Position numbers and translations under genes: made by a program
The notes under the pieces: model-generated
Told to the model about the DNA's origin: nothing
Database searches by the model: none
Seen by the model: only the letters and a program-made list of their open reading frames with translations
In this document: in pieces, positions 28,804-48,509 of the stretch
How the letters are laid out: each line of letters opens with the position of its first letter
How positions within the stretch are numbered: the first letter of the stretch is position 1
Source: Spirochaetia bacterium
Lineage (GTDB): Bacteria; Spirochaetota; Spirochaetia; UBA9216
Assembly: GCA_963677925.2 (NCBI GenBank)
Contig: CAXXYH010000004.1
Coordinates: 1,472,001 to 1,536,000 of the forward strand
Direction: 5' to 3'
Length of the DNA: 64,000 bases

Positions 28804-29436
28804 ATGAAAGTTAAAAAATTGGCCTTACTTCTTGTCCTGCTGCTTGTAAGCGGAGTCTTTGTGTTCGCAGAAGAAGAAAATGTTTTCAGTAAGTATGACC
28901 AGTCGCTTGGTTTCTACGGAAACTCTACTGGTATGATGGGAATAAGTTATCAGGACTGGAACGGCCGTCTTGGCTATCAGGTTACCGGAGGATTCACATA
29001 CAGTGATGATTACGCGTTTGATGTTTATTCATATGATGGAGAAAATGTTCCTGTAGATATTTTTTCATATAATATCGGTGCTGAAGTATTCTATATGCTT
29101 TATGAAGATTCATATGATGACTGGCTTGCCGGTGCGCTATATGTGTTCGGAAACCTTACGCATATAGGCAGTATCAATACAGATATAACATTTACCGGAA
29201 CTACAATTACTCCAACAGAAGGGGATCCGTATACTGAATATTCAGCATCAGGAGAAACTGACCCTTATTTCACACCAGGCATTGGTCTGGCTGTAGGTGT
29301 AGGTTTTGAAATAGTTTTATTCGACCACTTTTCGATACCGGTTGAAGTAGGTTACGGCGGGGCATGGGAATTCAGTTCTATCGTTCCTGTTAACGGCGGT
29401 TTTATGGCCGGAGGCGGATTCAGATACCGCTATTGA
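28804..29436 (+). CDS. Putative small outer-membrane beta-barrel protein
   Basis: Signal peptide (VFVFA|EEE), Gly/aromatic-rich amphipathic strands, C-terminal FRYRY. Confidence 0.65.
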   Translation: MKVKKLALLLVLLLVSGVFVFAEEENVFSKYDQSLGFYGNSTGMMGISYQDWNGRLGYQVTGGFTYSDDYAFDVYSYDGENVPVDIFSYNIGAEVFYMLYEDSYDDWLAGALYVFGNLTHIGSINTDITFTGTTITPTEGDPYTEYSASGETDPYFTPGIGLAVGVGFEIVLFDHFSIPVEVGYGGAWEFSSIVPVNGGFMAGGGFRYRY

Positions 29437-30565
29437 TGATTACGCCTGCAAACAGCAGGAACCATATAATCAGTATCAGAATAATTGAAAATATATATCC
29501 GGGGGCCTTTGCTCCCGGTTTTTTTGTCTCTGAAGCTCCGGTCTTGTTTCCGGCGCTGTAGAGTGCAAGGATCTTCTGATCGAGTTTTGAGAAAAGCCCT
29601 TCCTTTCCAAGCCTTTCGCCCTCGGTAATCCGTTCAAAATAGTAGAATACAAGAGAGACAAGGCTTCCTATCCGTCCGGGAAAGCTCAGCCCCTGCCTGA
29701 TTGAGTACCGTGAGATGTATATCAGTCCGATCAGCATGAAGGATTTCTGCAGCCCTGATGCCAGTGCTCCCGCTGTGATTTTTACAGGACCTATTTCGGC
29801 AAGTACATAACCGATAGGCGTTATAAGGTTTGCCGCAGTAATACCTGCCAGCATGATAATATTCGGCAGAATACGTATCCTTTTTCCGGATATACCTGAA
29901 AGAATCATGAATAATACAGCCTCAAAAGTGATCAGCAGCAGATTCGGCTGAAAGACAAAAGCCGGGATCATGATCAGCCCGCAGATGAATTTGAACTTCG
30001 GATAATGTGATTTATTAACAGATATTTCAATATCAGCTGCTTTCAGGCTTCCGGCAGAAAATCCGGCATACCACTCCGATACAGCTGTAAACCTGGCTGT
30101 GAACAGTCCAAGCAGTATCGATGTAGCAAGGCCCACCGCAAGAAAGGGCGGCGCAATAAGTACAGCAGCCTGTCCGAAAATGACGGCACGTGCAAACAGC
30201 AGCTGTACTGCATTTGAAGCCATTGCCCCTGCAATGCTTATACCTACATAGGAAACCCGCTTTTTCAGTGCATAGAAAACTATAAGCATGACTGCTGTGC
30301 TTGCAAATGTTCCGGCTGCTGAGAACAGAAAGATATATGAAAAAAGTGTGCCGTTTATCAGTCCCTGCCCGAGAATCTTCAGCAGGGCCAGAAGAAAAAC
30401 TCCTGAAACCGGGAAAACTCCAAGTGAAATCAGAATCGGCAGATTTGCCAGGCCTAGACGCATAAAGGGCATTGGTTTGGGTATGAGGTATTCAATAACC
30501 GAAAGAAACATGCAGAAGGCTGCAAGGATGGCAGTATCAGTAACTGAGATCGTCGATTTCTTCAT
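29420..30565 (-). CDS. Gx transporter / heptaprenyl diphosphate synthase component I family (EetB-like) fused to a partial EcfT-like domain
   Basis: IEYLIPKPMPFMRLGLAN, FSAAGT, GISIAGAMASNAVQL; C-term TPIGYVLAEIGPVKITAGALASGL. Start set at ATG 30565 behind AAGGAGGT. Confidence 0.85.
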   Translation of the reverse strand: MKKSTISVTDTAILAAFCMFLSVIEYLIPKPMPFMRLGLANLPILISLGVFPVSGVFLLALLKILGQGLINGTLFSYIFLFSAAGTFASTAVMLIVFYALKKRVSYVGISIAGAMASNAVQLLFARAVIFGQAAVLIAPPFLAVGLATSILLGLFTARFTAVSEWYAGFSAGSLKAADIEISVNKSHYPKFKFICGLIMIPAFVFQPNLLLITFEAVLFMILSGISGKRIRILPNIIMLAGITAANLITPIGYVLAEIGPVKITAGALASGLQKSFMLIGLIYISRYSIRQGLSFPGRIGSLVSLVFYYFERITEGERLGKEGLFSKLDQKILALYSAGNKTGASETKKPGAKAPGYIFSIILILIIWFLLFAGVIINSGI

Positions 30566-30914
30566 CCTGAGAACCTCCTTCAATCGATATGAATATTCTG
30601 TTGGGCAGGCATGCCGCCCAGTGTCCCGGTTTTGTAATATCACCCATGAGTACACAGAGTTTATCTTCACACGGTGAGTCTGAAATACTGGCTTTACCGT
30701 CTTTTATCACAATGTGCGAATGCCCGATCGGTCCTTCAATATCAAATTCCGCATCCTTATCAAGGGGGTAGATATACTGACCTTCATCACTGTCAATAAT
30801 GAGTCTGGCTGCCGAGGAGTTGCCCGTGTAGATCATAATCGAAAGAAGTACGATAGCAAGAACAGAAACCGCGGCAATAATATAGTCAAATGGTTTCAAT
30901 TGGCCTTTAAACAT
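30537..30914 (-). CDS. NusG domain II-containing membrane-anchored protein (EetA-like)
   Basis: LKPFDYII + TM, EGPIG, SDSPCEDKLCVLMG, ACLPNRIFI. Start set at ATG 30914. Confidence 0.9.
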   Translation of the reverse strand: MFKGQLKPFDYIIAAVSVLAIVLLSIMIYTGNSSAARLIIDSDEGQYIYPLDKDAEFDIEGPIGHSHIVIKDGKASISDSPCEDKLCVLMGDITKPGHWAACLPNRIFISIEGGSQDEEIDDLSY

Positions 30915-30999
30915 GTGCGGTATACTATATAATAAATATTGAAAAAGGTAAGCTTTTAGGTAATAATTTATCGAAAAAACTTTTAAATTCGGGTGGAAA

Positions 31000-31749
31000 A
31001 TGCTTGAAATAAGCGGCTGCAGAGCTGCATATGGTGACAATATTATTTTTGATGACCTCTCATGTTCCTTTGCTCCGGGAGATTCGGTGAGCATAGTGGG
31101 GGCTTCTGGCTGCGGGAAGTCTACTCTGGTCCTGACAGCCTCGGGATTGCTCAGTCCCTCTGTCGGCAGTGTAAGACTGGACGGGATGCCGCTTCAGCGC
31201 GGGGATTCCCGGGTAGGACTTATTCTTCAGAATTACGGACTTTTTCCCTGGATGACTGTTTTTGAAAATGCATCTCTGAGTCTCAGAATCAAGGGCGGAT
31301 TCAGAGGCAGAACCGTATCCGCCGATTCCCGGGTCCGGGTTATGGATATACTTAGGGAGCTTGGGCTTGAACAGAAGGAAAAGGAGTATCCGTCAAACCT
31401 CAGCGGCGGCGAACAGCAGCGGGTGGCAATTGCAAGGGCTATAGTAGCCAAACCGGAGGTTCTTCTGATGGATGAGCCCTTTTCAGCTCTCGATGCGATA
31501 AGCAGGGAGAATCTGCAGGATATGGTGAAGAATGTAATCATGCAGCATAAGCTGATGATGATAATGGTGACTCACAGTGTCGAGGAAGCTGTTTATATGG
31601 GCTCCCGTCTGATGATTATGAAAAAAACTGATAAGGGTGCAGTCCTTGATGAACTGCCCAATCCTTCATGGGACAGGCCTGATGTCCGCCTTGATGATCT
31701 GTACTTTTTGACTGTGAAGGAGCTTCGAAAAAGGCTGAAGAATGGGTGA
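31000..31749 (+). CDS. NitT/TauT-family ABC transporter ATP-binding protein
   Basis: GASGCGKST, QNYGLFPW, LSGGEQQR, LMDEPFSALD, VTHSVEEA. Confidence 0.95.
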   Translation: MLEISGCRAAYGDNIIFDDLSCSFAPGDSVSIVGASGCGKSTLVLTASGLLSPSVGSVRLDGMPLQRGDSRVGLILQNYGLFPWMTVFENASLSLRIKGGFRGRTVSADSRVRVMDILRELGLEQKEKEYPSNLSGGEQQRVAIARAIVAKPEVLLMDEPFSALDAISRENLQDMVKNVIMQHKLMMIMVTHSVEEAVYMGSRLMIMKKTDKGAVLDELPNPSWDRPDVRLDDLYFLTVKELRKRLKNG

Positions 31750-32365
31750 ACTTACTGCTTTTTCTGAAATTGTCTCAGCTGTGGCCTTCTCTCTGGGAAG
31801 AATATTAGTTTCTTTGTTAATTGCAGTTGCAGCAGCAGTTCCGGCAGCGGTGTTTACCGGAACAAAACCTTTTCTATGTAGACTGTTTTCACCGCTTATC
31901 ATGTTTCTGTACTCCATCCCAAAAATAGCGCTTTTCCCGCTTGCACTGCTTGTTTTCGGATTCAACGATGCTGCCAGAATAATGACTGCAGCCCTTGTTG
32001 TTTTTTTTCAGACTCTTATTACTGTCATAGACAGTATCCGCAGGCTTCCTCCTGAGTACAGGATTTCCATTGATTCTGTCGGAGCCGGGCGTTTTCAGAG
32101 ATTTCTGTTCCTGTATCTGCCGGCAGCTATGCCGGCAATATTTACCTCGCTGCGGATCGGTGTCGGGGCTGCTTTTGCGGTGCTTTTTTTTACAGAAGCT
32201 TCTATAACCAGAGGTTACGGACTCGGCAGGCTGGTAATTGAAAGCTGGTCCAGGCTCGATTACGGGACTATGATTCTGGCGGTTTTGCTGTCTGCCGTAT
32301 CGGGACTGGTTCTCTTTATAATTATTGATTTAGCTGAAAAACGGCTATTAAAGTGGAAGGCCTGA
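31742..32365 (+). CDS. NitT/TauT-family ABC permease (N-terminally short)
   Basis: SLGRI, YSIPKIALFP, EAA-loop-like SIDSVGAGRFQ, LFFTE, GLG. Confidence 0.88.
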   Translation: MGELTAFSEIVSAVAFSLGRILVSLLIAVAAAVPAAVFTGTKPFLCRLFSPLIMFLYSIPKIALFPLALLVFGFNDAARIMTAALVVFFQTLITVIDSIRRLPPEYRISIDSVGAGRFQRFLFLYLPAAMPAIFTSLRIGVGAAFAVLFFTEASITRGYGLGRLVIESWSRLDYGTMILAVLLSAVSGLVLFIIIDLAEKRLLKWKA

Positions 32366-33166
32366 GTTCTTTCGGGTATTCCATCTGCACAGCAGTCCCT
32401 CTGCCAGCCTGATTGTTCCAAAAATTACTCCGCTTATAAAAGTTAGTACCAGGATACCGCTGTAAAGATCTGTATAATCCATCCGTACCCGTGAGTCCAT
32501 TATATAAAAGCCCATACCATAGGTGGTTCCGAAATATTCAGAGAAAAAAAGTACTGCCACCGAGATTCCTGCTGAAATCCGTAATGTTGAAAACAGCCCC
32601 GGAAGCACTGCCGGCATGATCAGATACCTCAACTCGTCCGTTTTACCACCTCCGGAAGCCTGCAGGGATTTATAATAGCTTTCATCAATTCCGGCGGTGC
32701 TGTCTCTTACGCTTATGACTATTTGAAAGACAAGCGAAAAGGTGATCAGCAGTACTTTTGAAAACTCTCCTATCCCGAAGGCCAGTACGAATATCGGAAT
32801 CAGGGCCGTTTTGGGAAGGGGGTAGAGCAGGTAGGAGGCAATGCTTATGAAGCCTTTTCCTGAAGGTCTGCTAAGCCTGCGTCCGCGGATACCGGCAGCA
32901 ATACCTGCAGGTATTCCAATCAGTGCTGCTATAAGGCTGCCGGCGGCTATCCGGTAAAGACTGTAAAGCATATGATGAATAAGTCCGGGGCTGAATGGAA
33001 TACTGTATAAGCAGGCTGAGAACCGCGGCAGCAAGGGCGTATCAGCCAGTACCGCCGCTGTTTCCCAAAGGATGAAAAATGAGGATAAAATCAGGGCAGG
33101 TAGGATGTATCTACCAGTTCCCCGAAAGAGTATTCTTTTTTGATAAGCTGTCTTGAGCTCAGCCAT
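32348..33166 (-). CDS. NitT/TauT-family ABC permease
   Basis: SLYRI, YPLPKTALIP, PAVLPGLFSTLRIS, LFFSEYFGTTYGMGFYIMD. SD GAGGT; overlaps the SBP gene by 76 nt. Confidence 0.9.
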   Translation of the reverse strand: MAELKTAYQKRILFRGTGRYILPALILSSFFILWETAAVLADTPLLPRFSACLYSIPFSPGLIHHMLYSLYRIAAGSLIAALIGIPAGIAAGIRGRRLSRPSGKGFISIASYLLYPLPKTALIPIFVLAFGIGEFSKVLLITFSLVFQIVISVRDSTAGIDESYYKSLQASGGGKTDELRYLIMPAVLPGLFSTLRISAGISVAVLFFSEYFGTTYGMGFYIMDSRVRMDYTDLYSGILVLTFISGVIFGTIRLAEGLLCRWNTRKNSGLPL

Positions 33167-34047
33167 TCGATTACCTCTTTTACTTCCTTCTCCGGAGGAG
33201 CTGCTGCCTTTGTGTATGCCGGAAGTTCCATGACTTCCTTTGCTGCCGGAGGGAATCCCATCTCGCTTATAATGCTGTCGATATACTCATTTTTATCTGT
33301 TTCGATGAGATAATCAACCGCCTTGTTGTAGGCTGTAAAAAGAGCAGTTAATGCCTTGCTGTTTTCGGATGCGTAGTCGGTTCCAGCAAGAAGAATTCCA
33401 GGATTAATTCCGAGTTTATCGGTGGATGTGAGCACATTTGCTCCGGAAGTTACCGATACAGTCGCAAGCGGTTCTGCGAGGGTTGCTCCGTCAATCCTGC
33501 TGTTTGAAAGAAGTTCAAGTCTGACGGGAATCTGGGGGATAATTTCCTTAACAATAACTGAATCGGATAATCCGCCCGCCTTGAGCATTTTATCGGTTGC
33601 ATATTCGATTATTGTATTCTTTGAGATACCTATGCTTTTACCGGTAAGATCGCTTATGGATGTAATTCCCGATTCTGCTGATGTGAGCAGTTTATATGAA
33701 CCGTTTGTAGCTGCAACAGCCCGGACGTCAAAGCCGCCGTTCACGGAAAATGCGGCGGCAAGCAGATCTGAAATCACCAGGTCAATTTCTCCTGCTTGAA
33801 AGGCTGCATCCCTGTCATTGGGGTTTTTGAACTGCATTATTTCAACTTCAATGCCTTCTTCACCGTAGTAGCCGTTAAGATCGGCAATAACGAATGGAAT
33901 TGAATCAACGTCGGGAAGCACTCCCAGACGAATGTGAGTTATCTGTTCAACTTTATTGATATCTGTACTTTTTTCTGAATTTCCTGCTGAAAAAGCAGAT
34001 ACTGTCAGCATAAGCATCAGCAGCATCAAAAGAAATTTTTTAATCAT
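33091..34047 (-). CDS. NitT/TauT (NMT1/THI5-like) ABC substrate-binding protein
   Basis: Signal peptide ending SAFSAGNSE; GVLPDVDSIP, RDAAFQAGEID, GISKNTIIEY, IPVRLELL, LAEPLA. Start ATG 34047 behind GGAG (34059 also possible). Confidence 0.9.
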   Translation of the reverse strand: MIKKFLLMLLMLMLTVSAFSAGNSEKSTDINKVEQITHIRLGVLPDVDSIPFVIADLNGYYGEEGIEVEIMQFKNPNDRDAAFQAGEIDLVISDLLAAAFSVNGGFDVRAVAATNGSYKLLTSAESGITSISDLTGKSIGISKNTIIEYATDKMLKAGGLSDSVIVKEIIPQIPVRLELLSNSRIDGATLAEPLATVSVTSGANVLTSTDKLGINPGILLAGTDYASENSKALTALFTAYNKAVDYLIETDKNEYIDSIISEMGFPPAAKEVMELPAYTKAAAPPEKEVKEVIEWLSSRQLIKKEYSFGELVDTSYLP

Positions 34048-34075
34048 TCGAATCTCCATATAATTAAAATGTCGC

Positions 34076-34092
34076 TTAGTAATTATTACTAA
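34076..34092. promoter_or_regulatory. Palindromic operator upstream of the SBP operon
   Basis: Perfect palindrome TTAGTAAT-T-ATTACTAA; cognate regulator unknown. Confidence 0.45.
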
Positions 34093-34163
34093 ATAAATAA
34101 TGTATAGTTCAAGCCCTTTAAACCGGGATTAACCCATATTCCATAAGGGTATATTATATAGCC

Positions 34164-34610
34164 GTGGATTGCAAAATTAAGCAGATTACGGAAGGAAATT
34201 ATACCTGTTTATCAAGCCTCGTGAAAGACAGGACGGCCATTGATTTTTCCTTTGTTAAATCAGCTTTTGATGAATGGATTTCGGGAAAAAACAGATTTGA
34301 CCGAAAAGGTGAAATACTTCTCGGTGTTTTTGCAGGGGATGAGTGTGCCGGAATTTGCGGCCTGAATATTGATCCCTATGCTGAAGACTTGCGTCTTGGC
34401 AGAGTCAGGCATCTGTTTATATGCGAGGCCTACCGGCGTCAGGGCCTTGGACAGCAGCTGCTGACCAGTATCATAGAACAGGCTTCAGAGAATTTCGACC
34501 GGATTCGTTTATATACAGACAGTAAAGCTGCAGCAGCTCTATATGAGAAAACGGGGTTCAGGAAGTCCTTCCGATTTAAAGAAAGTCACATTATGGATTT
34601 GAAAGTTTGA
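34164..34610 (+). CDS. GNAT acetyltransferase
   Basis: GICGLNIDPY, GRVRHLFI, RRQGLGQQL, LYEKTGF; GTG start. Confidence 0.9.
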   Translation: MDCKIKQITEGNYTCLSSLVKDRTAIDFSFVKSAFDEWISGKNRFDRKGEILLGVFAGDECAGICGLNIDPYAEDLRLGRVRHLFICEAYRRQGLGQQLLTSIIEQASENFDRIRLYTDSKAAAALYEKTGFRKSFRFKESHIMDLKV

Positions 34611-34635
34611 CTGCCTAATAAAATCATGATAATCT
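34607..34635 (+). promoter_or_regulatory. Putative leaderless sigma70 promoter of the thioesterase
   Basis: TTGACT-N17-TAATCT (with TG extension), 6 nt before ATG 34642. Confidence 0.6.
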
Positions 34636-34641
34636 CAGCGC

Positions 34642-35052
34642 ATGACAGAAACTGAAATAATTGTGAGATATGCCGAAACCGACCAGATGGGGATTGTTCA
34701 CCATGCTGTTTACCCGGTCTGGTTTGAGGCTGCCAGAACAGATATGATGGAAAAGGCGGGCTATCCCTATTCGAGAATTGAGGAAGAAGGGATTATGATT
34801 CCACTCTCCCATCTTGAGTGTGATTACCTTGCCGGAGCAAAATATGGAGAGAGGGTGATTGTAAGCTGCAGAGTTGAAAAGCTTTCAATCGCACGCTTTG
34901 CTATGGCCTATGAGGTCCGGCGGAAGGATGACGGTGAGCTGCTCGCAACCGGGAAGTCGATGCACGGCTGGACAGATACGAATCTTAATGTGATTAATCT
35001 GAAAAAACGAGCTCCGGATTTATATAATTTTCTGGAGAATATGGGGAAGTAG
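34642..35052 (+). CDS. YbgC/4HBT-family acyl-CoA thioesterase
   Basis: VRYAETDQMGIVHHAVYPVWFEAAR hot-dog motif. Confidence 0.93.
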   Translation: MTETEIIVRYAETDQMGIVHHAVYPVWFEAARTDMMEKAGYPYSRIEEEGIMIPLSHLECDYLAGAKYGERVIVSCRVEKLSIARFAMAYEVRRKDDGELLATGKSMHGWTDTNLNVINLKKRAPDLYNFLENMGK

Positions 35053-35112
35053 GAGTTCCGCTGTGAGATGCGTTGAACGGTTCAGGGCGGCCATTTATGA
35101 TATTTTTGAAGG

Positions 35113-35655
35113 ATGGAAAAAGTGATTGAAATGAAAAATTCAGAATTAATTTATAAGGCCTGCAGCCTTGGTCTGCAGACAAAAAGCCTTAATAATCACT
35201 GTTCACAAGCCTGTCTGTGCGGGATAGCACCTCATATCGGGCTTGATGATGCTATGGCCCTTAAGATGATGGCCGCTATGGGCGGAGGTATGAGGCATGG
35301 ACAGCTTTGCGGTGCTGTGACTGCAGCCGGAGTAGCATTAGGGCTGGAATTCGGTGCGGAATCTTTAAAAAAGAATCCTGATGAAACTGCCCGGGATAAA
35401 AGGCTCGGGGAGCTTACCGAGGAATTTGTTGCAAGGTTTAAGGATGTATTGAGCACTACGCTCTGTGATGACATACTAGAGTCCGAGCTTGAATCTTTCA
35501 GCTGGGATATGCCTGAGGAGCTGAATTTTGTACCTAACACGGATAATGAAAACGGAAATGAGTACAACATAAAGCATCCATCCTGCGGAGTAGCGATAAC
35601 CAAGGCCATTGAAATAGCCCTTGATATTATCTACCGGGAGAGAGACTTGGCTTAG
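35113..35655 (+). CDS. C-GCAxxG-C-C family putative redox protein
   Basis: HCSQA, GGGM...CGAVTA, TTLCDDI, SCG. Start may be 35131. Confidence 0.85.
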   Translation: MEKVIEMKNSELIYKACSLGLQTKSLNNHCSQACLCGIAPHIGLDDAMALKMMAAMGGGMRHGQLCGAVTAAGVALGLEFGAESLKKNPDETARDKRLGELTEEFVARFKDVLSTTLCDDILESELESFSWDMPEELNFVPNTDNENGNEYNIKHPSCGVAITKAIEIALDIIYRERDLA

Positions 35656-35656
35656 T

Positions 35657-37256: not shown

Positions 37257-37260
37257 GAGA

Positions 37261-40108: not shown

Positions 40109-40141
40109 AAAAAATCTACCCGCTGAAAAATTGGCGGTTAT
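40109..40141 (+). repeat. 33-bp direct repeat, copy 2 (includes the ubiX stop codon)
   Basis: AAAAAATCTACCCGCTGAAAAATTGGCGGTTAT. Confidence 0.9.
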
Positions 40142-40743
40142 TCCCCCCAGCGTTTACTCAGGCTGTTATAAATGCCTAGGTGATCCAGGATTCTTGCTGT
40201 TACAAAATTGACTGCATCTATGAGGGTGCGGGGCTGGGTGTAGAATCCTGGGGACGCAGGCAGTATGGTTGCACCCGCCTCATCGAGTGCGAGCATATTT
40301 TTCAGATGAATGCGATTGTAGGGTGTTTCTCTCGGTACGGTGATGAGCTGCCGCTTTTCCTTCAGGCAGACATCTGCTGCCCTGCCTATTAGGCTCTGAA
40401 GAGTTCCGTTGGCAACCGACCCTAGTGAGGACATACTGCATGGAACTATCACCATTGATTCTATTCCAAATGATCCGCTTGCAGGGCCGGCGAAGAGGTT
40501 TTTATTATCGTGTACTGTTATGGCAGGAGTGTCCTGCGCACTTATTTTTTCAATCCATCCGCTAATATCTGCAGCATCAATATCTGTCTCGAACTTAAAA
40601 ACATCTGCTCCGGTTTCTGAAAAAACAAGGTGGATATCACATCCCGCCTTCCACAGTTCCTCTAAAAGCCTCAGTGCGTATATGGAACCGCTGGCTCCTG
40701 TTACCGCTACTAATATTTTCCTGTTCCTGTTTACATCGCTCAT
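40138..40743 (-). CDS. ubiX: Flavin prenyltransferase UbiX
   Basis: VAVTGASGSIY, ASGS, PCSM, RAADVCLKE, PRETP, PASPGFY. Confidence 0.96.
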   Translation of the reverse strand: MSDVNRNRKILVAVTGASGSIYALRLLEELWKAGCDIHLVFSETGADVFKFETDIDAADISGWIEKISAQDTPAITVHDNKNLFAGPASGSFGIESMVIVPCSMSSLGSVANGTLQSLIGRAADVCLKEKRQLITVPRETPYNRIHLKNMLALDEAGATILPASPGFYTQPRTLIDAVNFVTARILDHLGIYNSLSKRWGE

Positions 40744-41905: not shown

Positions 41906-41945
41906 TAAAGTTTATGATATATAAAAGTTCAAATGCTTTTTATGG

Positions 41946-43829
41946 ATGATGCGGATGAAGAACATGAGTGATCTTCTCTGGGTTATTATCTCGGCCATGC
42001 TTGTTTTTCTGATGCAGCCGGGCTTTATGGCTCTTGAGACAGGTCTTACAAGGGCAAAGAACTCAATTAATGTTGCAATCAAGAATATGTCTGATTTTCT
42101 TGTTTCTGTTGCAGCTTTCTGGTTTATCGGGTTCGGTCTCATGTTCGGAAAATCCTTTCATGGAATCATAGGCATTAGCGATTTTTTTGTTAACTTTGAA
42201 ATGGATAACTGGAAGGCCGCCTTTTTTGTTTTTCAGGCAGTTTTTGTAGGAACAGCAGCTACGATTGATTCAGGCGCGGTAGCCGAGCGGGCGAAATTCA
42301 GCACATATCTGATGATGTCTTTTCTTACTTCAGCATTTATATATCCGGTTTTCGGTCACTGGGCCTGGGGCAGCGCCTTCTATCCGGATAATCCCGGCTG
42401 GCTTCAGAAGCTCGGATTCCTTGATTTTGCGGGGTCTACTGTTGTCCATTCGATTGGCGGATGGGTAGGACTTGCCGGTATTATCACTATCGGCCCAAGG
42501 ATAGGCCGATTCAGTGAAGACGGGAAGCCCAATAAAATATCCGGGCATAATCTGGTTTTCGCCTACTTCGGAGTCTGTATTCTGTTTTTTGCCTGGTTTG
42601 CCTTTAACGCAGGGAGTACTCTCAGTGCATCGGAGAGTATTGCTAATATTCTGGCCAATACTATTATTTCAGCGTCTTTCGGGGGACTTACAACATTATT
42701 TGTAAGCTGGATGCTCAGTGAAAACCATCTGCCTGAACCGGAACTTATTATCAACGGAATTCTCGGAGGCCTTGTAGGAATAACCGCCGGCTGCAGGTAT
42801 ATGGGCGAACTCAGTTCCATGCTTGTCGGAATTGTATCAGGAATTATAGTTGTTTTCGGAAACCGGCTGCTTGAAAAACTAAAACTTGATGATGCTGTAG
42901 GTGCTGTTCCTGTTCATGGCTTTGCGGGGATGTGGGGAACAATAGCAACCGGACTCTTTATAAAGAACAGTTTTCTTCTGGAATTCGGAATATCAAGGGG
43001 AAATCAGATTTTAATTCAGTTGCTTGGATCTGCCGCTGCTCTTGTATGGGGGCTTGGTGTATCGCTCCTCCTGATGAAAATAATAAACAGATTTTCTCCG
43101 ATGAGGGTATCCCCGGCATTTGAGGAGATAGGCCTGAATATTGCCGAACACGGAGCAAGCTCCAGCATTCTTGAACTGTCCAATTCGGTCAGAAAGATAA
43201 TAGAAAGCAGGAATTTCAGGGAAACCGGAAAGATTCAGGTTGAGTACGGAACAGAGATTGGAGAGCTCACCAATTATTTCAATACGATGATTGATGATCT
43301 GAAGATTAAGGAGGATGCGGCCGAAGAAGCACTTTCATCTCTGCATCAGATGGCAATTACCGACGGATTGACCCAGATATACAACAGAAAATTTATCTCG
43401 GACACCCTGGTCAAGGAGATTGCCAGATCGATCCGCTACGAAAGTAAATTATCAGTATTAATGTTCGATATAGATTTTTTTAAGGATATAAACGATAAAT
43501 ACGGCCATCCGGCCGGAGATAAGGTTCTTATTGAAATTTCTAAAAGAGTTAAGGAGTCACTGCGGGAGTCCGACTATTTCGGCAGGTATGGGGGAGAAGA
43601 ATTTCTGGTGATTTTTCCGGAGACAGATCTCGCAAATGCCTACATTATCTCAAACCGGATAAAAGAGAATATTGAATGCATGTGCTGGGACTTCAACGAG
43701 GTATTCTGTGTCACTGTAAGCGGCGGTGTGGTGGAAAACTTCGGTGAAGATTTTGACCGGATGATTAAGCGGGCAGACAACCTGCTGTACTACGCAAAAG
43801 AAAACGGCCGCAACATGATTATAAAATAA
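41946..43829 (+). CDS. Ammonium transporter fused to a HAMP-like linker and GGDEF diguanylate cyclase
   Basis: MQPGFMALETG, SGAVAER, DFAGSTVVH, FAFNAGS, DDAVGAVPVHG, GLNIAEHG; EIGELTNYFNTM; DGLTQIYNR, DIDFFKDINDKYGHPAGD, RESD, GGEEF. Start among 41946-41964. Confidence 0.95.
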   Translation: MMRMKNMSDLLWVIISAMLVFLMQPGFMALETGLTRAKNSINVAIKNMSDFLVSVAAFWFIGFGLMFGKSFHGIIGISDFFVNFEMDNWKAAFFVFQAVFVGTAATIDSGAVAERAKFSTYLMMSFLTSAFIYPVFGHWAWGSAFYPDNPGWLQKLGFLDFAGSTVVHSIGGWVGLAGIITIGPRIGRFSEDGKPNKISGHNLVFAYFGVCILFFAWFAFNAGSTLSASESIANILANTIISASFGGLTTLFVSWMLSENHLPEPELIINGILGGLVGITAGCRYMGELSSMLVGIVSGIIVVFGNRLLEKLKLDDAVGAVPVHGFAGMWGTIATGLFIKNSFLLEFGISRGNQILIQLLGSAAALVWGLGVSLLLMKIINRFSPMRVSPAFEEIGLNIAEHGASSSILELSNSVRKIIESRNFRETGKIQVEYGTEIGELTNYFNTMIDDLKIKEDAAEEALSSLHQMAITDGLTQIYNRKFISDTLVKEIARSIRYESKLSVLMFDIDFFKDINDKYGHPAGDKVLIEISKRVKESLRESDYFGRYGGEEFLVIFPETDLANAYIISNRIKENIECMCWDFNEVFCVTVSGGVVENFGEDFDRMIKRADNLLYYAKENGRNMIIK

Positions 43830-43831
43830 AT

Positions 43832-44872
43832 TTACACTGATACTGTGTTTAGAAGTTCCCTGCCTGCAGCCTGAAGATAGGTGGCAAGTTCCTGTTTATT
43901 AACAATATAGTAATAGCGCCTGCTGTTCCCCGGTTTTATGCTCAATATTCTTGATGAAACCATTTTATTGAGATGGTAGGACATTGTCGCCGGGGTTATT
44001 CCGAAATGAGTTGCCAGTTCATTGCTGAACCAGGGTCTTATTGAAACGAGTCGTAGAATTTCAAGTCTTTTGCTGTCTCCAAGAACAGAAAACAGTATGT
44101 CTGTTTTTCTGTTGTCGGATTGATTATTCAATATATCCTTTGTTCCCGCTCCGATTATCACCATGGGCATATCTGTCGAAAGATACGAACTTGTATCCAG
44201 AAAGAATGAGAAATAGATATTGTTTAATCCCTGCTCAGTCTCGAAGAAATTGTTGAAGAGATCCCTTGTTGCACCGTTAAGATAAGAGATTTCATCCTGC
44301 TCAAATCTTTCTTTATGCCAAATGAAAAGACTTTTAATCTGCTCACTATTATTAACCTCTGTCTGACTGTAAAAATCGGAATAGAAGATTTTATACAGAT
44401 TTTTCAGGCGTTCGAGAAAGTCTGCGGGAGTAGTGAGGAATGATGAAATGAGTCTGGCAGTTTCCTCAGGTGAGTTTTCTGAAGATGATATCTCTGGCAG
44501 AATTGCCAGAATATTCTCATACGAAACTACCTTGTCCTGTGGAAGATTTAAAATGCTTTTTATCCGGGTCTGTATATACTCTGGTGTGAGGCTGTTCAGA
44601 ATATTCAGGAACCCGGCCGCTGTGCTGCAGCCTTCATTGGATATTACAGTTTCAATAAGAAGCCAGCTTGTCTGAGGTATTTTTTTCACAAGCAATTCAA
44701 TATCACTCTCAAGAAAAGGTGAAATGTTTTTCTCTGTAATATCAATCCATTCCTGTACGGCTTCTATTCCTTTCAAACCGAGGAATGTCTTCTTTTCTGC
44801 TGTTTCGTTCCGGAGTGCATAATGCAGTACAGCGCAAATGAAATCGATTGCCTGGTTATGTATAAATTCCAT
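43832..44872 (-). CDS. Large ArsR-family regulator with C-terminal winged HTH
   Basis: FSVLGDSKRLEILRLV, ELATHFGITPATMSYHLNKM at the C-terminus of a 346-aa protein. Confidence 0.88.
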   Translation of the reverse strand: MEFIHNQAIDFICAVLHYALRNETAEKKTFLGLKGIEAVQEWIDITEKNISPFLESDIELLVKKIPQTSWLLIETVISNEGCSTAAGFLNILNSLTPEYIQTRIKSILNLPQDKVVSYENILAILPEISSSENSPEETARLISSFLTTPADFLERLKNLYKIFYSDFYSQTEVNNSEQIKSLFIWHKERFEQDEISYLNGATRDLFNNFFETEQGLNNIYFSFFLDTSSYLSTDMPMVIIGAGTKDILNNQSDNRKTDILFSVLGDSKRLEILRLVSIRPWFSNELATHFGITPATMSYHLNKMVSSRILSIKPGNSRRYYYIVNKQELATYLQAAGRELLNTVSV

Positions 44873-44891
44873 TTCATGATTTTATCACTAA

Positions 44892-44980
44892 TTAGAAATA
44901 TATCTAATATAAAATTTCGAAAATATTCTAAATTAGTAGATTAATATAAGATATAGATCTAATATTAGAAACATATCTAA
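44892..44980. promoter_or_regulatory. Four copies of a TTAGA-N6-TCTAA operator
   Basis: 44892 TTAGAAATATATCTAA; 44916 TTCGAAAATATTCTAA; 44947 TAAGATATAGATCTAA; 44965 TTAGAAACATATCTAA. Confidence 0.7.
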
Positions 44981-45013
44981 CACTAAGTATGTTTCTGATA
45001 AAAAGGGGTGTTT

Positions 45014-45211
45014 ATGTTTGAGTCTTCACATGAGTCGTATTATATGAGCAGAGCCCGGGGCAGACAGTTGTATCTGGAATATCAACGGGGACGTAATGTA
45101 CCGGGAGAAGTCCTTCTATGGTTAAAAGAAAAGGGCAAGCGCTGTAAAAAGAAGAAAGGTTACACCGATTATCTGATTGATGTTGTATGCGGCGAAGTTG
45201 ATCAGTCGTGA
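45014..45211 (+). CDS. Small hypothetical protein divergent from the ArsR gene; 3' end overlaps ubiA antisense
   Basis: SD AAGGGG before ATG 45014; MFESSHESYYMSRARGRQLYLEYQRG; 90-nt convergent overlap with ubiA. Confidence 0.45.
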   Translation: MFESSHESYYMSRARGRQLYLEYQRGRNVPGEVLLWLKEKGKRCKKKKGYTDYLIDVVCGEVDQS

Positions 45212-45988
45212 ATCTTTTTTTACCCTTTCAGGCAGAATCAGCAGGTGTTCGAAGATAAACAGGGCTGTAATGATTCCGACTCCGGCATAATAGATAATAC
45301 CCAGCCCCTGAAGGTAGCCGGTGACTGCCATAAGCAGTACCGACGCAGCATGCATACCGGCCGCACCGAGTCTTGCCAGTTTTTCTCCGAAGACGGAGGG
45401 TATTGAGTAGAGGCCTTCAGAACGGTCAAAGTCGATATCCTGAATAGCATAAATTACATCAAATCCTGCAACCCAGGCGGCATTGGCCGCAGCCAGAACA
45501 AAGGTCGTAAGTTCAGCTCCTGCGGTTACTCCGACCCATGCACCGAATGCTCCGCCGGCACAGGCCGCACCCAGAATTATATGGCAGAGCCATGTGAAAC
45601 GTTTTGTGTAGGAGTAGAGTATGAATATTCCGGCGGCCAGCGGAAGAAGTACTACACAGAGCCAGTTGAGCATGAACGCCGAAACGGTGAGAAGTATCAT
45701 ACCGGCGACTGCAACAGCGAGGGCATCACGCCGGTGAAGTTTTCCCGACGGCAGGTGACGCCCGGCAGTTCTGGGATTTCTTGCATCGATATTGCGGTCT
45801 ACTATCCGGTTCATGGCATTCGCAGCGTTTCTTCCGCCGGTAAATGCCAGCACTATCCAGATGAACGTTTTCCATCCGGGGAAGCCATGTGCAGCCATGA
45901 GCATTGCAGCAAGTGTTACCGGAAGCGAAAAAAGCGTATGCGAAAACATCACCATTTCCGCATACAGCTTCAGTTTCTTAAAGGCCAT
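45122..45988 (-). CDS. ubiA: UbiA-family prenyltransferase (futalosine-route MqnP-like)
   Basis: FSHTLFSLP, NRIVDRNIDARNPRTAGRHLPSG, YSYTKRFTWLCH, GFDVIYAIQDIDFD, GLYSIP. Start ATG 45988 overlaps the ubiD stop. Confidence 0.93.
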   Translation of the reverse strand: MAFKKLKLYAEMVMFSHTLFSLPVTLAAMLMAAHGFPGWKTFIWIVLAFTGGRNAANAMNRIVDRNIDARNPRTAGRHLPSGKLHRRDALAVAVAGMILLTVSAFMLNWLCVVLLPLAAGIFILYSYTKRFTWLCHIILGAACAGGAFGAWVGVTAGAELTTFVLAAANAAWVAGFDVIYAIQDIDFDRSEGLYSIPSVFGEKLARLGAAGMHAASVLLMAVTGYLQGLGIIYYAGVGIITALFIFEHLLILPERVKKDSRLINFAAYNINQIIGVTFLLFTALALFF

Positions 45989-47420
45989 ATTCAGACCACT
46001 TTTTGTCGACCATGGCTTTGACTTCATCAGTCATCTCGATGTCATCAGGCCATTCACGCGGGTGGCCTTCCTCAGGCCACTTTTTAGTGGCATCTATTCC
46101 AAGCCTGCTTCCGTAATGGGGCAGGGGCGAGGCATGATCCAGTGCATCCAGCGGACCTTCGGTAATAAGCAGGTCGCGTCTTGCATCAATATTGTTGAAG
46201 ACCTTCCACATTACAGTAGATATATCCGAGGGATTGATGTTCTTATCAACTACGATGATCATTTTTGTGTACATCATCTGGCCGCTGCCCCATATTGCGT
46301 TCATGACTTTCTTGGCATGGCCGGGGTATTTCTTGTCTATCGAGACAATTACACAGCTGTGAAAAACGCCCTCCAGCGGGAAGTTGATGTCCATAATCTC
46401 GGGGTTTATCATCTTTATAAGCGGAAGAAAGGTTCTCTCCGTAAGTTTTGCCAGATAGCAGTCCTCCATCGGCGGCTTGCCGACGATGGTAGCCGGGAAG
46501 ACCGGCTTTTTCTTACGGGTGATCTTTTCAACATGAAAAACCGGGTAGTAGTCTGTTAGTGAATAGTATCCGGTGTGATCACCGAAGGGGCCTTCAAGCA
46601 CATGAGGCTCGGCAGGATCCACCCAGCCTTCGAGGATAAACTCGGCATTCGCCGGAACTTTGATATCGTTTGTTATACATTTTACCTGCTCAACAGCCGC
46701 CTTGCGCAGAAAGCCTGCAAACATTATTTCATCAATGATAGCCGGCAGAGGTGCAGTTGCAGAATAGATGATTGCGGGATCACAGCCGAGGGCTACCGAT
46801 ACCGGCATCTTTTTTCCGGCTTTGCGGTATTTTTCATATATTTCACGGCCGTCCTTGTGCAGGTGCCAGTGCATTCCAGTTGTATTTTTGGAAAATACCT
46901 GCATCCGGTACATTCCTATATTCTGCTGTCCGGTATCCGGATCTCTTGTAAAAACAAGCGGCAGAGTCATGAAAGGTCCGCCGTCCTGAGGCCAGCAGTG
47001 CAGTACCGGCAGTGTATTCAGATCCGGTTCCTCCACCACCTGCTGACAGGCTGCGGGGCCGACAACCGGCCTGGGGAAAACCTCCAGCATTCTGGCCAGT
47101 TTGGGTATCGATTTTATCTTGTCGATGAGTCCCATATAGCTGCTTACATCAAGAAGATCTGTTATCTGATCAGCAAAATCGTCGATGGACTCTATTCCGA
47201 AGGCGAGATTCAGCCGGTCATAAGTTCCGAACCCATTTATGAATACAGGGTATTCCGAGCCTTTTACGTTTTCAAAAAGAAGTGCAGGTCCGCCCTCTTT
47301 CACAACCCTGTCGGCAATCTCGGTTATTTCAAGGTAGCTGTCGACTTCAGCTGAAATCCTTTTCAGCTCACCTTTCTTCTCAAGAAGTTTTATAAAACCC
47401 TGAAGATCTTTTACTGCCAT
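45978..47420 (-). CDS. ubiD: UbiD-family prFMN decarboxylase (menaquinone biosynthesis decarboxylase, MqnL-like)
   Basis: GGPALLFENV, WPQDGGPF, NIGMYRMQ, HWHLHKDG, EGPFGDHTGYY, GKPPMED, GPLDALDHAS, GIDATKK. Confidence 0.95.
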   Translation of the reverse strand: MAVKDLQGFIKLLEKKGELKRISAEVDSYLEITEIADRVVKEGGPALLFENVKGSEYPVFINGFGTYDRLNLAFGIESIDDFADQITDLLDVSSYMGLIDKIKSIPKLARMLEVFPRPVVGPAACQQVVEEPDLNTLPVLHCWPQDGGPFMTLPLVFTRDPDTGQQNIGMYRMQVFSKNTTGMHWHLHKDGREIYEKYRKAGKKMPVSVALGCDPAIIYSATAPLPAIIDEIMFAGFLRKAAVEQVKCITNDIKVPANAEFILEGWVDPAEPHVLEGPFGDHTGYYSLTDYYPVFHVEKITRKKKPVFPATIVGKPPMEDCYLAKLTERTFLPLIKMINPEIMDINFPLEGVFHSCVIVSIDKKYPGHAKKVMNAIWGSGQMMYTKMIIVVDKNINPSDISTVMWKVFNNIDARRDLLITEGPLDALDHASPLPHYGSRLGIDATKKWPEEGHPREWPDDIEMTDEVKAMVDKKWSEYGL

Positions 47421-47423
47421 TTA

Positions 47424-48509
47424 TTATCTCCCGACCTCGTTGTAGCTCGTGTCAGTTAGGCTGAAACTGTCTCCCAGCCCGCTTGTGAGGTACATATCCT
47501 TATTTTCCATCAGAATAATTGCTTCTGTGTCCGGCATTTCTTCAACAAGAGCCAGGCCTGCCTCTACACCGAGGGAGAAAACTGTGGTAGACATTGCATC
47601 CGCCTGCATTGATACAGGGCAGATTATTGACACCTGGGCGATTCCGTTTTCAACGGGGTATCCGTCCTTAGTGCTTAAGATATGGTGATACCGCCTGTCA
47701 TCTTCAATAAAGAAGCGTTCATATTTACCCGAAGAAACTACTGCCTTATCACTGATTGAAAGGACTCCGATGTATTCGCCCCTTGATGTATCCGGATTCT
47801 GGATTCCAATCCGCCATTCCGAGCCGTCGAGTTTTGTACCGAGTGCAAGTACATTCCCGCCAAGGTTTATAAGCGATGATGTGACGCCGACTGAATGGAG
47901 GTATTCGGCGATTTTATCGGCTGAAAAACCCTTGGCTACTCCGCCCGGTTCCAGTTTCATTTTTTCAGTTTCGAGGAATGCATAGTATTTACCGCTGTCG
48001 GATGTGAGACTGAGTCTGTTATAGTCAACCAGTTCAAGTGCTGCATTTATTTCTGCTTTTGAGGGAACTCTTGCATCTTCACTTCCTATTCCCCAGAGGC
48101 TTACAAGAGGCCCTATGGTTATGTCGAAGGTACCACCGCTTTTCTCAGAGAACTGAAGGCCCTCTGAAAGTACTTTGTAGAAGTCGGCGGAAATCTCAAC
48201 CGGTTGAAGGCCTGCAGCCTTGTTAACTTTATTTGCAGTGCTGTCCGCAATTGTCACACTCATCTGCTGCTCAATATCATCAACCAGAGTCCTGATTTCA
48301 GAAAATATATCTGATGCCTGTAAATTATCTGTACCGGCAACTCTGCCTTTTTTATCGGCATCGATGCTGATACTGCAGGTTGTTCCGATGGCAAGAAAGC
48401 TGTCATTTACACGTTCATATTCAGTCTGTCCGAGAGCAAAAAGGCTGCCGGCAGATAAAACTGCTGTTAAAAATATTAGAGTAAAAATTTTATTAGTTCG
48501 TATTTGCAT
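47424..48509 (-). CDS. apbE: FAD:protein FMN transferase (ApbE/FmnB)
   Basis: FDITIGPLVSLWG, GGVAKGF, INLGGNV, WRIGIQNP, SSGKYERF, YHHIL, ADAMST. Start ATG 48509 with signal peptide; promoter TTAACA-N17-TAAAAT 7 nt upstream. Confidence 0.95.
   Translation of the reverse strand: MQIRTNKIFTLIFLTAVLSAGSLFALGQTEYERVNDSFLAIGTTCSISIDADKKGRVAGTDNLQASDIFSEIRTLVDDIEQQMSVTIADSTANKVNKAAGLQPVEISADFYKVLSEGLQFSEKSGGTFDITIGPLVSLWGIGSEDARVPSKAEINAALELVDYNRLSLTSDSGKYYAFLETEKMKLEPGGVAKGFSADKIAEYLHSVGVTSSLINLGGNVLALGTKLDGSEWRIGIQNPDTSRGEYIGVLSISDKAVVSSGKYERFFIEDDRRYHHILSTKDGYPVENGIAQVSIICPVSMQADAMSTTVFSLGVEAGLALVEEMPDTEAIILMENKDMYLTSGLGDSFSLTDTSYNEVGR

Follow-up and report, generated by a model that had tools for sequence, protein, structure and literature searches.

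Introduction

The locus described here raises the question of why a bacterium would keep the enzymes that finish a quinone when its genome has no evident means of making the quinone head group. The stretch under study (the window) comprises 64,000 nucleotides from a Spirochaetia bacterium (assembly GCA_963677925.2, contig CAXXYH010000004.1, positions 1,472,001 to 1,536,000). It carries genes for the decarboxylase UbiD, the aromatic prenyltransferase UbiA and the flavin prenyltransferase UbiX, together with an ATP-binding cassette (ABC) importer and its substrate-binding protein (SBP), the FAD:protein FMN transferase ApbE, and relatives of EetA and EetB from the extracellular electron transfer (EET) locus of Listeria. 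An original prediction, made from the letters of the window alone, proposed that the importer brings in a naphthoate head group made by other microbes, which the late enzymes then convert into a quinone serving flavinylated redox proteins outside the cytoplasm. Our analysis leads us to consider it reasonably probable that the locus is a loosened copy of a mobile module for late-step menaquinone salvage, coupled to the flavinylation of extracytoplasmic proteins. That the importer is functionally coupled to UbiA, UbiD and UbiX appears very likely, and the proposal that its ligand is 1,4-dihydroxy-6-naphthoate has roughly equal chances of standing or falling.

Results

Three late enzymes without an internal source of substrate

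The open reading frames (ORFs) between 26.5 and 51 kb of the window were scanned against Pfam and NCBIfam, and the whole genome (5.04 Mb in four contigs, 99.63% complete) was searched with profiles. The window UbiD contains all three Pfam domains of its family (UbiD_N, UbiD and UbiD_C) and passes the MqnL equivalog TIGR03701, yet misses the E. coli-type UbiD equivalog NF008175, with 443 bits against a cut-off of 788. UbiA exceeds a cut-off only on the generic model TIGR01475, with MqnP models ranking next. Its translation shows both Asp-rich motifs (N..xD...D and DxDxD), and the gene is the sole UbiA-family member in the genome, which has a single match to PF01040. UbiX, the third late enzyme, passes TIGR00421.

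A de novo head-group pathway, sought genome-wide as a potential refutation of salvage, was not found. PF02621, the family of MqnA and MqnD, has no match in the whole genome, and the two matches to MqnC reach only about 20-22 bits against a cut-off of 428. The best matches to MenD (64 bits, cut-off 244) and MenB (131.5 bits, cut-off 342.7) are sub-cut-off paralogues, and neither MenA (TIGR00751) nor MenG/UbiE is present in the genome at E<=1e-20. The original prediction had noted the lack of mqn and men genes in the window, and this now extends to the genome, where none lies over cut-off. With no head-group synthesis, the three late enzymes are left without an internal source of substrate.

Linkage and co-occurrence of the importer with the late enzymes

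The window UbiD was used to scan one genome per species, and the 80 best UbiD loci (63-83% identity) were retained; most belong to Clostridia and other Bacillota, eight to Spirochaetota, and one is labeled Thermotogae. The cultured carriers in this set include Caloramator quimbayensis, Clostridium drakei, Clostridium tagluense and Geosporobacter subterraneus. Neighbors within 10 kb were counted in two ways, by tblastn with the window proteins and by clustering all ORFs of the 80 loci and scanning the cluster representatives against Pfam. The first survey recovered UbiA in 78 loci, a permease in 62, the ATPase in 61, UbiX in 59, the SBP in 58, ApbE in 21 and the NusG_II protein in nine. The linkage presumed by the original prediction therefore reaches well beyond the window: at least one ABC part stands beside ubiD-ubiA(-ubiX) in 69 of the 80 loci, usually within a tight operon of the order ubiD-ubiA-ubiX-SBP-ATPase-permease, and ubiX follows ubiA in 55-59 of the 80. 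Among the 11 loci where no ABC part was seen, nine lie on contigs that end within 1.8 kb past ubiD.

The closest relative, a Spirochaetales metagenome-assembled genome (MAG; locus L024), carries the whole window set in the same order within 12.5 kb, including the regulator of the ArsR type, the convergent permease pair and the divergent EetA/EetB pair. The window UbiD is 83-84% identical to its counterpart in L024 and 63-74% identical to the clostridial copies. This compact arrangement indicates that the window holds a loosened copy of a compact cluster, and L024 synteny together with the linkage of ABC parts to ubiD and ubiA in the wider set places the grouping of genes in the window beyond chance.

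The pattern of absence seen in the window genome recurs in its relatives. PF02621 was searched for in 50 of the genomes behind the 80 loci, and MenA, MenD and MenG/UbiE in 51, including the window genome. There is no PF02621 match in 41 of the 50, and the other nine have single matches of 27-42 bits in ORFs of 316-363 amino acids (aa), which we read as unrelated proteins of the periplasmic binding protein fold given that true MqnA/D pairs in the spirochaete reference score 110-263 bits. MenA is over cut-off in three of the 51 carrier genomes, MenD in two and MenG/UbiE in five.

Co-occurrence was followed in an even sample of Clostridia, comprising 200 genomes and the centre genome, and 10 of these 201 exceed the TIGR03701 cut-off. 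Eight of the nine carriers other than the centre genome have no PF02621 match and the ninth has one of 35.5 bits, and all nine match a profile of the SBP subfamily at 335-463 bits, with the SBP gene within 6 kb of ubiD in six. The SBP profile was scored in 200 of the 201 genomes (G357 was left out), and a score of at least 334 bits was reached in exactly the ten TIGR03701 carriers and one further genome, G278, whose contig of 2967 bp reads SBP-UbiX-UbiA and ends where ubiD would lie. The SBP subfamily thus co-occurs with the operon, as the original prediction would have it, being present in 11 of 11 operon-bearing Clostridia and in none of the 189 others, a count rather than a statistical test, since relatives are not independent.

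Contrast with ring-making spirochaetes

An even sample of 201 Spirochaetota genomes provides the converse case. TIGR03701 is over cut-off in 20 of them, including the window genome, and the 19 others score 608-644 bits. All 19 have MqnA/D (110-263 bits; two copies in 18 and a single one in the remaining genome), and in ten of them a copy shares the contig of ubiD at a distance of at most 10 kb. Among the 20, MqnA/D is lacking in the window genome alone, so that the co-occurrence with mqnA-D on which the name MqnL is based is missing here. Conversely, no SBP, permease, ApbE, EetA, EetB, Ndh2 or polyprenyl synthase lies within 10 kb of ubiD in any of the 19 ring-making loci. In the 16 of these where ubiA adjoins ubiD, the UbiA proteins are 32-41% identical to that of the window, and the UbiDs of this group are 49-58% identical to the window enzyme.

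These two groups also separate by descent. A quick maximum-likelihood tree of 99 UbiDs, rooted on a distant paralogue, places the window and 78 of its 80 relatives on one side of a branch with an SH-aLRT support of 90, with the 19 ring-making spirochaete UbiDs outside. The nearest neighbor of the window in this tree is L024 (support 100); two Bacillota MAGs and five further spirochaete MAGs join the pair in a group (support 92) that branches from within Bacillota. This placement fits a transfer of the module between the phyla, with Bacillota as the probable donor. The cluster had been called ancestral in the original prediction; this holds insofar as a compact module shared with Bacillota has since loosened here, but the spirochaete probably acquired it by transfer.

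The importer and its binding protein

The importer is complete as a member of the NMT1/SsuA type, with an SBP, two permeases and an ATPase. The original prediction had recognized the SBP and the permease beside it as a transporter, both of which are present, and had overlooked the ATPase and a second permease on the plus strand. Permease 2 has its best NCBIfam matches to permease models of the SaoP, TauC and NtrB types and the ATPase to models of the SaoA, NtrCD and TauB types, all below cut-off, and permease 1 is 33-36% identical to permease 2. The window SBP has a signal-like N-terminus that lacks a Cys residue, whereas its clostridial orthologues have a lipobox Cys, as expected for the extracytoplasmic receptors of monoderms.

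A model of the SBP has a predicted local distance difference test score (pLDDT) of 93.5 and shares its fold with SsuA, TauA, ThiY, Thi5 and PqqT (Foldseek). Searching the sequences of the PDB with the SBP profile gave weak THI5/SsuA matches (best E 5e-8) and PqqT at E 1e-5, and the ligand could not be read from homology in this search. An alignment of 56 sequences reveals the invariant residues G46, R83, A86, D98, S146, T149, P178, R180 and W299; judging by these, the two invariant arginines and the tryptophan would suit an aromatic carboxylate. PqqT (PDB 9b1u, 9ooz) belongs to the same SBP fold family and has the top identity among the structural matches listed (20-21%; Foldseek E about 1e-16 to 5e-17), and it demonstrates that this fold is able to bind a carboxylated aromatic quinone. 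However, PqqT is only distantly related, and its ligand, organisms and gene neighborhood differ, so that it serves as a lead and not as evidence of membership.

A sister SBP subfamily, 26-29% identical to the window SBP and scoring 226-251 bits on its profile, is encoded in an SBP-ATPase-permease operon of its own in Clostridia that lack ubiD. It was seen in five UbiD-negative genomes representing four lineages, L133 and L134 being 83-86% identical. A MenA-like prenyltransferase gene lies divergently beside this operon in the L133/L134 lineage only (L133:2236-4205, L134:6944-8915), and its best matches are all to 1,4-dihydroxy-2-naphthoate polyprenyltransferase models, below cut-off. No MenA-like neighbor stands beside the sister SBP in L131, L132, L135 or the metagenome relative L137. 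We gave this arrangement no weight as support.

Embedding among genes for flavinylation and electron export

Clustering the ORFs of the 80 loci brings out the wider setting of the module. The most frequent neighbors were a polyprenyl synthase (29 loci), a Pyr_redox_2 protein of about 634 aa resembling type II NADH dehydrogenase (22), ApbE (21) and a response regulator (20), followed by NusG_II and PF07456 proteins (17 each), a U32 protein of 643 aa and an FMN_bind protein of 119 aa (15 each), a class-III aminotransferase (13) and a second FMN_bind protein of 294 aa (10). One typical map reads PPS< EetB< EetA< Ndh2< FMN_bind> ApbE> UbiD> UbiA> UbiX> SBP> ATPase> permease, where PPS is the polyprenyl synthase, and another reads Ndh2> EetA> EetB> PPS> UbiD> UbiA> UbiX> ATPase> permease. 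The prediction of a futalosine-type counterpart to the Listeria system is supported by these neighborhoods: at least one of Ndh2, EetA, EetB, ApbE and a small FMN_bind protein occurs in 33 of the 80 loci and three or more kinds in 21, and MenA, as noted above, is rare among carriers.

A pair formed by the U32 protein and the class-III aminotransferase recurs in varied arrangements (L026, L033, L037, L038, L039, L041, L044, L045, L047, L052, L057, L060 and L079), and U32 stands alone in L065 and L066. Matches of the 643-aa U32 protein to TrhP and UbiU all fall short of the cut-off. No such pair lies near the module in the window genome. Where present, the pair might tailor a ring without oxygen.

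In the window genome, searches prompted by the original prediction recovered the electron-transfer parts that it could not see. A gene of 719 aa resembles Ndh2 (Pyr_redox_2): most of the protein aligns with the Ndh2-like protein of the clostridial loci at 40% identity, and it carries a membrane extension at the C-terminus. It is directly followed by a polyprenyl synthase gene of 324 aa, with ispH convergent to it; the best NCBIfam match of the synthase, below cut-off, is to heptaprenyl diphosphate synthase component II. This pair lies at C4:2389.5-2392.7 kb, about 870 kb from the window. The genome further contains 14 FMN_bind matches, several of them in ORFs of 613-741 aa with FAD_binding_2 and four in ORFs of 136-154 aa, as well as eleven NapH-like Fer4_5 matches. 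The four small ORFs and the larger reductases are possible candidates for a counterpart of PplA. Published work regards NapH-like proteins as putative partners that link flavinylated proteins to quinol (PMC8238504).

One locus elsewhere in the genome (L125; C4:70800-75200) encodes two NapH-like iron-sulfur membrane proteins, a 135-aa FMN_bind protein, a transporter of the major facilitator superfamily (MFS) and a 335-aa regulator of the ArsR type. This regulator and its window counterpart are paralogues over their full length (23% identity, E 8e-21), and the arrangement suggests that the quinone module and a flavinylated electron conduit may be under common control. A canonical rnfCDGEAB cluster lies at C3:557600-562500. 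A further cluster (L126; C3:1821500-1825400) encodes an NqrB/RnfD-like protein, an FMN_bind protein, two Rnf-Nqr membrane subunits and an NqrF-like protein (Fer2-FAD-NAD), with no NqrA upstream. Should this NqrA-less cluster encode a quinone reductase, the salvaged quinone would gain a second consumer.

ApbE and the proposed supply of FAD

ApbE lies directly upstream of ubiD in five of the 80 loci and within 10 kb in 21. In the window gene, an internal ATG at 48509 precedes a hydrophobic, signal-like stretch, as read from the sequence itself. The genome has two ApbE genes, the second of which has no room for a signal peptide; the window ApbE is therefore the only exported one, and must also serve Rnf. 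The second gene (L105; C4:594400-598500) follows a 1019-aa fusion of old yellow enzyme (OYE), FMN_bind and FAD_binding_2 domains, and this pair resembles a self-sufficient flavinylated reductase of the cytoplasm that is supplied with a transferase of its own.

The EetB-like gene had been placed in a flavinylation setting by the original prediction. Rivera-Lugo et al. (2023, PMC9973259) showed that EetB (PF07456) binds FAD, resembles an ECF S-component and is needed together with the EcfT-like FmnA for the export of FAD to ApbE. It is a subunit of an FAD exporter and not an electron carrier, and in the window it appears to be fused to an EcfT-like half. Fusions of EetB and EcfT are known, and a clean eetA deletion in Listeria gave no phenotype (PMC9973259).

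A model of the EetB-like protein, built with 51 sequences, has a pLDDT of 89.5. By VIA-align its residues 3-169 resemble the riboflavin S-component TmRibU (Z 12.8, root-mean-square deviation (rmsd) 2.9 over 161) and its residues 186-376 resemble the EcfT of a folate transporter, 5d3m_D (Z 10.3, rmsd 4.9 over 140), and CbiQ (Z 7.7), although for helical bundles a Z under about 13 may reflect merely a common arrangement. The C-terminal half has no match in a Pfam scan at E<=5, and the model has none against the PDB by Foldseek at E<=0.001; a protein-atlas search returned a cluster containing CbiQ at 0.88, which we treat as a lead only. Homologues of 350-470 aa with two domains, named 'Gx transporter family' at NCBI, are common in spirochaetes. 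Taking the modeled fold together with the known fusions, the EetB-EcfT protein is probably the supply line of FAD for ApbE.

Gene layout of the window

Scans with Pfam and NCBIfam confirmed every member of the minus-strand order given in the original prediction, running from apbE-ubiD-ubiA through ubiX and the SBP-permease pair to the eetA- and eetB-like genes. The first three do form one tight operon, with a gap of 3 nt between apbE and ubiD and an overlap of ubiD with ubiA (Table 1). The plus-strand ATPase and permease 1 converge on the pair of SBP and permease 2 and diverge from the EetA/EetB pair across 85 bp, a spacing between the EetA-like gene and the ATPase that is found in L024 too. 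As listed, the long EetA- and EetB-like ORFs overlap, and internal starts give proteins of 125 aa (EetA-like) and 381 aa (EetB-like).

Table 1. Positions of the module genes within the window, with the supporting profile matches
Feature	Position	Strand	Support
ApbE-type FAD:protein FMN transferase	47424..48578	-	PF02424, 294.6 bits; probable start 48509
UbiD family, MqnL-type decarboxylase dependent on prenylated FMN (prFMN)	45978..47420	-	TIGR03701, 648.5 bits (cut-off 495.9)
UbiA family, MqnP-like aromatic prenyltransferase	45122..46027	-	PF01040, 177.5 bits; TIGR01475, 252.7 bits (cut-off 180.8)
ArsR-type regulator, 346 aa, long N-terminal domain	43832..44872	-	HTH_20/HTH_5 at residues 264-310
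UbiX flavin prenyltransferase (prFMN for UbiD)	40138..40743	-	PF02441, 142.7 bits; TIGR00421, 201.1 bits (cut-off 108.9)
SBP, NMT1/SsuA family, proposed head-group receptor	33091..34059	-	PF09084, 72.6 bits
ABC permease 2	32348..33166	-	PF00528
ABC permease 1	31742..32365	+	PF00528
ABC ATPase, nitrate/sulfonate/taurine type	31000..31749	+	PF00005, 111.3 bits
EetA-like NusG_II membrane protein	30537..30914	-	PF07009, 83.7 bits
EetB-like ECF-S domain with probable EcfT-like half	29420..30565	-	PF07456, 117.2 bits in N-terminal half

The genes between these parts had been described as unrelated, and by Pfam they indeed have no family link to quinone or flavinylation modules; they encode an Amt-GGDEF fusion, a DUF4404 protein, a histidine kinase, and GyrI-like, MarR-GNAT, GCAxxG and GNAT proteins. 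The regulator of the ArsR type between ubiA and ubiX has a 41%-identical copy at the same place in L024. The fusion of an Amt domain with a GGDEF diguanylate cyclase (41946-43829, plus strand) sits between this regulator and ubiX, and relatives of it with 37-43% identity lie near the operon in L096, L098 and L100. A 4HBT thioesterase (34642-35052) was considered as a core part, being 72% identical in L024, and was rejected since it occurs in only one of the 80 loci.

Beyond the module, a 662-aa protein combining an OYE domain with a pyridine-nucleotide-disulfide oxidoreductase (49226-51214, plus strand) is encoded divergently from apbE, behind an XRE-cupin regulator (48700-49158, plus strand); its best models, all below cut-off, are BaiCD, the FadH/OYE of the mycofactocin system and bilirubin reductase. 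Further along, a single ORF (59789-61621, minus strand) combines the ATPase domain of an ABC transporter with PAS, HisKA and HATPase_c domains; this unusual union of an ATPase and a histidine kinase stands directly behind a sigma-54-dependent response regulator (61611-62918).

Discussion

A model for salvage of the quinone head group

A comparison of the window with its compact relatives and with ring-making spirochaetes enabled us to propose a mechanism for the module. In this model, the SBP-ABC importer would take up a soluble, carboxylated aromatic head group from other microbes, put forward here as 1,4-dihydroxy-6-naphthoate, beyond which the futalosine route has no further soluble intermediate. 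This compound is favored as the sole futalosine intermediate that is usable without MqnC/D, and it would explain why a separate decarboxylase has been retained. The MqnP-like UbiA would then prenylate the head group with a long-chain polyprenyl diphosphate supplied by the HepT-like synthase beside ndh2, and the MqnL-type UbiD, loaded with prFMN by UbiX, would strip the carboxyl group. The activity predicted for this UbiD is the decarboxylation of prenylated 1,4-dihydroxy-6-naphthoate. Since the genome has no MenG/UbiE, the product should be demethylmenaquinone. The EET-type Ndh2 would reduce this quinone with NADH, and electrons from the quinol would pass outward, probably via NapH-like membrane proteins, to flavin-carrying periplasmic proteins. 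The exported ApbE encoded in the ubiD-ubiA operon would attach the flavin to these proteins, using FAD exported by the EetB-EcfT fusion.

A number of observations weigh against this model. The window UbiD aligns end to end with E. coli UbiD of the 4-hydroxybenzoate pathway (2idb, E 1.4e-121), and its identity to the context-proven MqnL of spirochaetes is no higher than 49-58%, so that sequence alone cannot fix the substrate. On the MqnP models NF041586 (MqnP_DT), NF041584 and NF041585 the window UbiA reaches 273, 215 and 187 bits against cut-offs of 430, 420 and 375. However, six context-proven spirochaete MqnPs score 231-264 bits on MqnP_DT and nine UbiAs of the salvage type 254-336 bits, and as the context-proven enzymes likewise fail, the missed cut-off probably reflects models that are lineage-specific and not membership of another subfamily. 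The nearest solved relatives of the SBP bind sulfonates, thiamine pyrimidines or PQQ, at 16-21% identity. The U32 protein (15 of 80 loci) and the aminotransferase (13 of 80) are not needed for a simple route from naphthoate to demethylmenaquinone. In the window genome itself the parts are spread over 19 kb, with Ndh2 and the synthase far removed, and ApbE must serve the Nqr-like complex as well as Rnf, so a position beside ubiD does not by itself indicate a role specific to the module. The 80 loci were picked by likeness to the window UbiD, and related genomes among them are not independent. Finally, two loci in Treponema MAGs (L084, L085) have ubiD-ubiA-ubiX with full 10-kb flanks and no ABC system. 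The genomes of these two loci lack MqnA/D, and one of them (G043) has MenA over cut-off.

Alternative explanations

The same logic of import, prenylation and decarboxylation could operate on another head group, such as 4-hydroxybenzoate, 1,4-dihydroxy-2-naphthoate (DHNA) or a different aromatic acid, to give a different prenylated phenol or quinone, perhaps tailored in some Clostridia by the linked U32-type hydroxylase and aminotransferase. The full-length alignment with E. coli UbiD, which acts on prenyl-4-hydroxybenzoate, is consistent with this, as are the generic cut-off alone passed by UbiA, the recurrence of U32 and aminotransferase genes in several arrangements (U32 being UbiU/TrhP-like below cut-off), and the sister SBP subfamily beside a MenA-like prenyltransferase in one lineage. 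We nonetheless regard it as rather unlikely, because TIGR03701 is passed by 150 bits where the E. coli-type equivalog is missed, and because the same type of UbiD stands beside mqnA/D in other spirochaetes. The window genome has no U32 near the module and neither MenG/UbiE nor finishing enzymes of the UbiG type, without which a 4-hydroxybenzoate route would halt at a redox-inactive prenylphenol; users of DHNA, for their part, normally need MenA alone and no UbiD. A bolder version of the salvage idea would have the imported ring be no known menaquinone intermediate, and the module the source of an undescribed class of quinone. In Clostridia with the U32/aminotransferase pair, where the U32 protein resembles a prephenate-dependent hydroxylase, the prenylated ring would then be hydroxylated or aminated without oxygen, giving a low-potential quinone for electron export, and Bacillota and Spirochaetota would exchange the module as one piece. 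We hold this to be a long shot.

A product without a respiratory role appears more doubtful still. The module might make a membrane antioxidant or a signal, or dispose of a toxic aromatic acid, its flavinylation and Ndh2 neighbors then reflecting shared regulation and not electron flow. It is true that 47 of the 80 loci have no electron-export or flavinylation gene within 10 kb, that the window genome has no cytochrome bd, and that ApbE has other clients in Rnf and the Nqr-like complex. Against this, Ndh2-like, EetA, EetB, ApbE, FMN_bind and polyprenyl synthase genes recur in many arrangements, with three or more kinds in 21 of the 80; Ndh2 is paired with a polyprenyl synthase in the window genome, and the similarly built locus of Listeria and Lactiplantibacillus is quinone-dependent (PMC9888254). 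It is highly improbable that the ABC system imports a cofactor precursor in place of the ring, be it a flavin needed for prFMN and for flavinylated proteins or a thiamine pyrimidine, the kind of ligand known from other NMT1/ThiY members. Its SBP fold family does include ThiY, Thi5 and a thiamine-binding SBP, and the module needs both FMN (for UbiX) and FAD (for ApbE). However, flavin and thiamine needs are universal and this SBP subfamily is limited to operon-bearing genomes (11/11 against 0/189); ring-making spirochaetes have no transporter beside the same enzymes (0/19), and without import of a ring the window enzymes have no source of substrate. The suggestion we find hardest to credit is that the modules are neighbors by chance in the window genome, with apbE-ubiD-ubiA as the only functional unit. 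Although about 8 kb of genes with no evident link separate the parts, some on the other strand, the order of all parts is preserved within L024, and linkage and co-occurrence are conserved across two phyla.

Relationship to known quinone and electron-export systems

Returning to salvage of a futalosine-type head group as the preferred reading, one of the closest described systems is the FLEET/EET locus of L. plantarum and Listeria, which comprises Ndh2, PplA, EetA, EetB, FmnA, FmnB/ApbE, DmkA and DmkB (PMC9888254, PMC9973259). The resemblance is clearest in the clostridial copies of the module, which sit among Ndh2-like, EetA, EetB, ApbE, small FMN_bind and polyprenyl synthase genes; in the window genome ApbE, EetA and EetB remain in the window and Ndh2 and the synthase, the counterpart of DmkB, lie elsewhere. 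L. plantarum makes demethylmenaquinone from an exogenous head group, there DHNA (PMC9888254), and a comparable outcome is predicted here. The systems differ in that the MenA-type DmkA is absent from the spirochaete and is replaced by the MqnP-like UbiA, the MqnL-type UbiD and UbiX. In addition, the passages of the published accounts that describe the locus name no head-group importer, whereas the operon here brings its own dedicated ABC importer with an SBP; EetB appears to be fused to an EcfT-like half, and the host is a diderm with scattered parts. We class the locus with the electron-export and quinone-salvage systems of the Listeria type, from which it departs in finishing the quinone by a futalosine-type branch, in encoding its own importer and in its scattered layout in a diderm.

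Salvage of DHNA with MenA/DmkA, as in L. plantarum (PMC9888254), shares with our model the lack of own head-group synthesis and the completion of demethylmenaquinone from a soluble precursor provided by neighbors. It differs in that the present module uses another branch of the prenyltransferase family and encodes a dedicated importer together with its enzymes, and its extra, prFMN-dependent decarboxylation implies a carboxyl group that prenylation does not remove. Group B streptococci are a further case of DHNA salvage with MenA/DmkA in quinone auxotrophs.

MqnP, MqnL and MqnM of the futalosine pathway were predicted by Ravcheev and Thiele in 2016, only in genomes with the Mqn pathway, and importers of menaquinone precursors were at that time still to be found (PMC4746308). 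The window UbiD passes the MqnL model and belongs to a sister group of the UbiDs beside mqnA/D in spirochaetes, and the window UbiA scores the MqnP models as high as context-proven MqnPs do. What sets the present case apart is the missing early pathway and the importer in the operon. The same is true of 41-50 of 50 related genomes, the range reflecting the nine weak PF02621 matches. A full-text literature search, which did not cover the supplementary cluster tables of PMC9973259 and PMC8238504, found no paper linking ubiD/ubiA/ubiX to an ABC importer or to EET loci, and a search of the same kind found no importer of menaquinone precursors described since 2016. The main text of PMC8238504 makes no mention of UbiA, Ndh2 or DmkA.

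Implications

The module changes how some genome annotations should be read, since an MqnL or MqnP annotation alone does not imply a futalosine pathway. Exchange of menaquinone precursors between microbes has already been proposed, and the SBP subfamily described here is a sharply defined, testable candidate for a precursor importer; if the ring should prove to belong to an undescribed class of quinone, the SBP-ABC system would rank as the first importer dedicated to a building block of quinones. About 5% of the sampled Clostridia carry the salvage module, as do some spirochaetes. Anaerobes scored as lacking head-group synthesis may therefore run a quinone-dependent route for electrons from NADH to the outside when neighbors supply the ring, a possibility that bears on metabolic models, on the cultivation of uncultured anaerobes and on the scoring of genomes for extracellular electron transfer.

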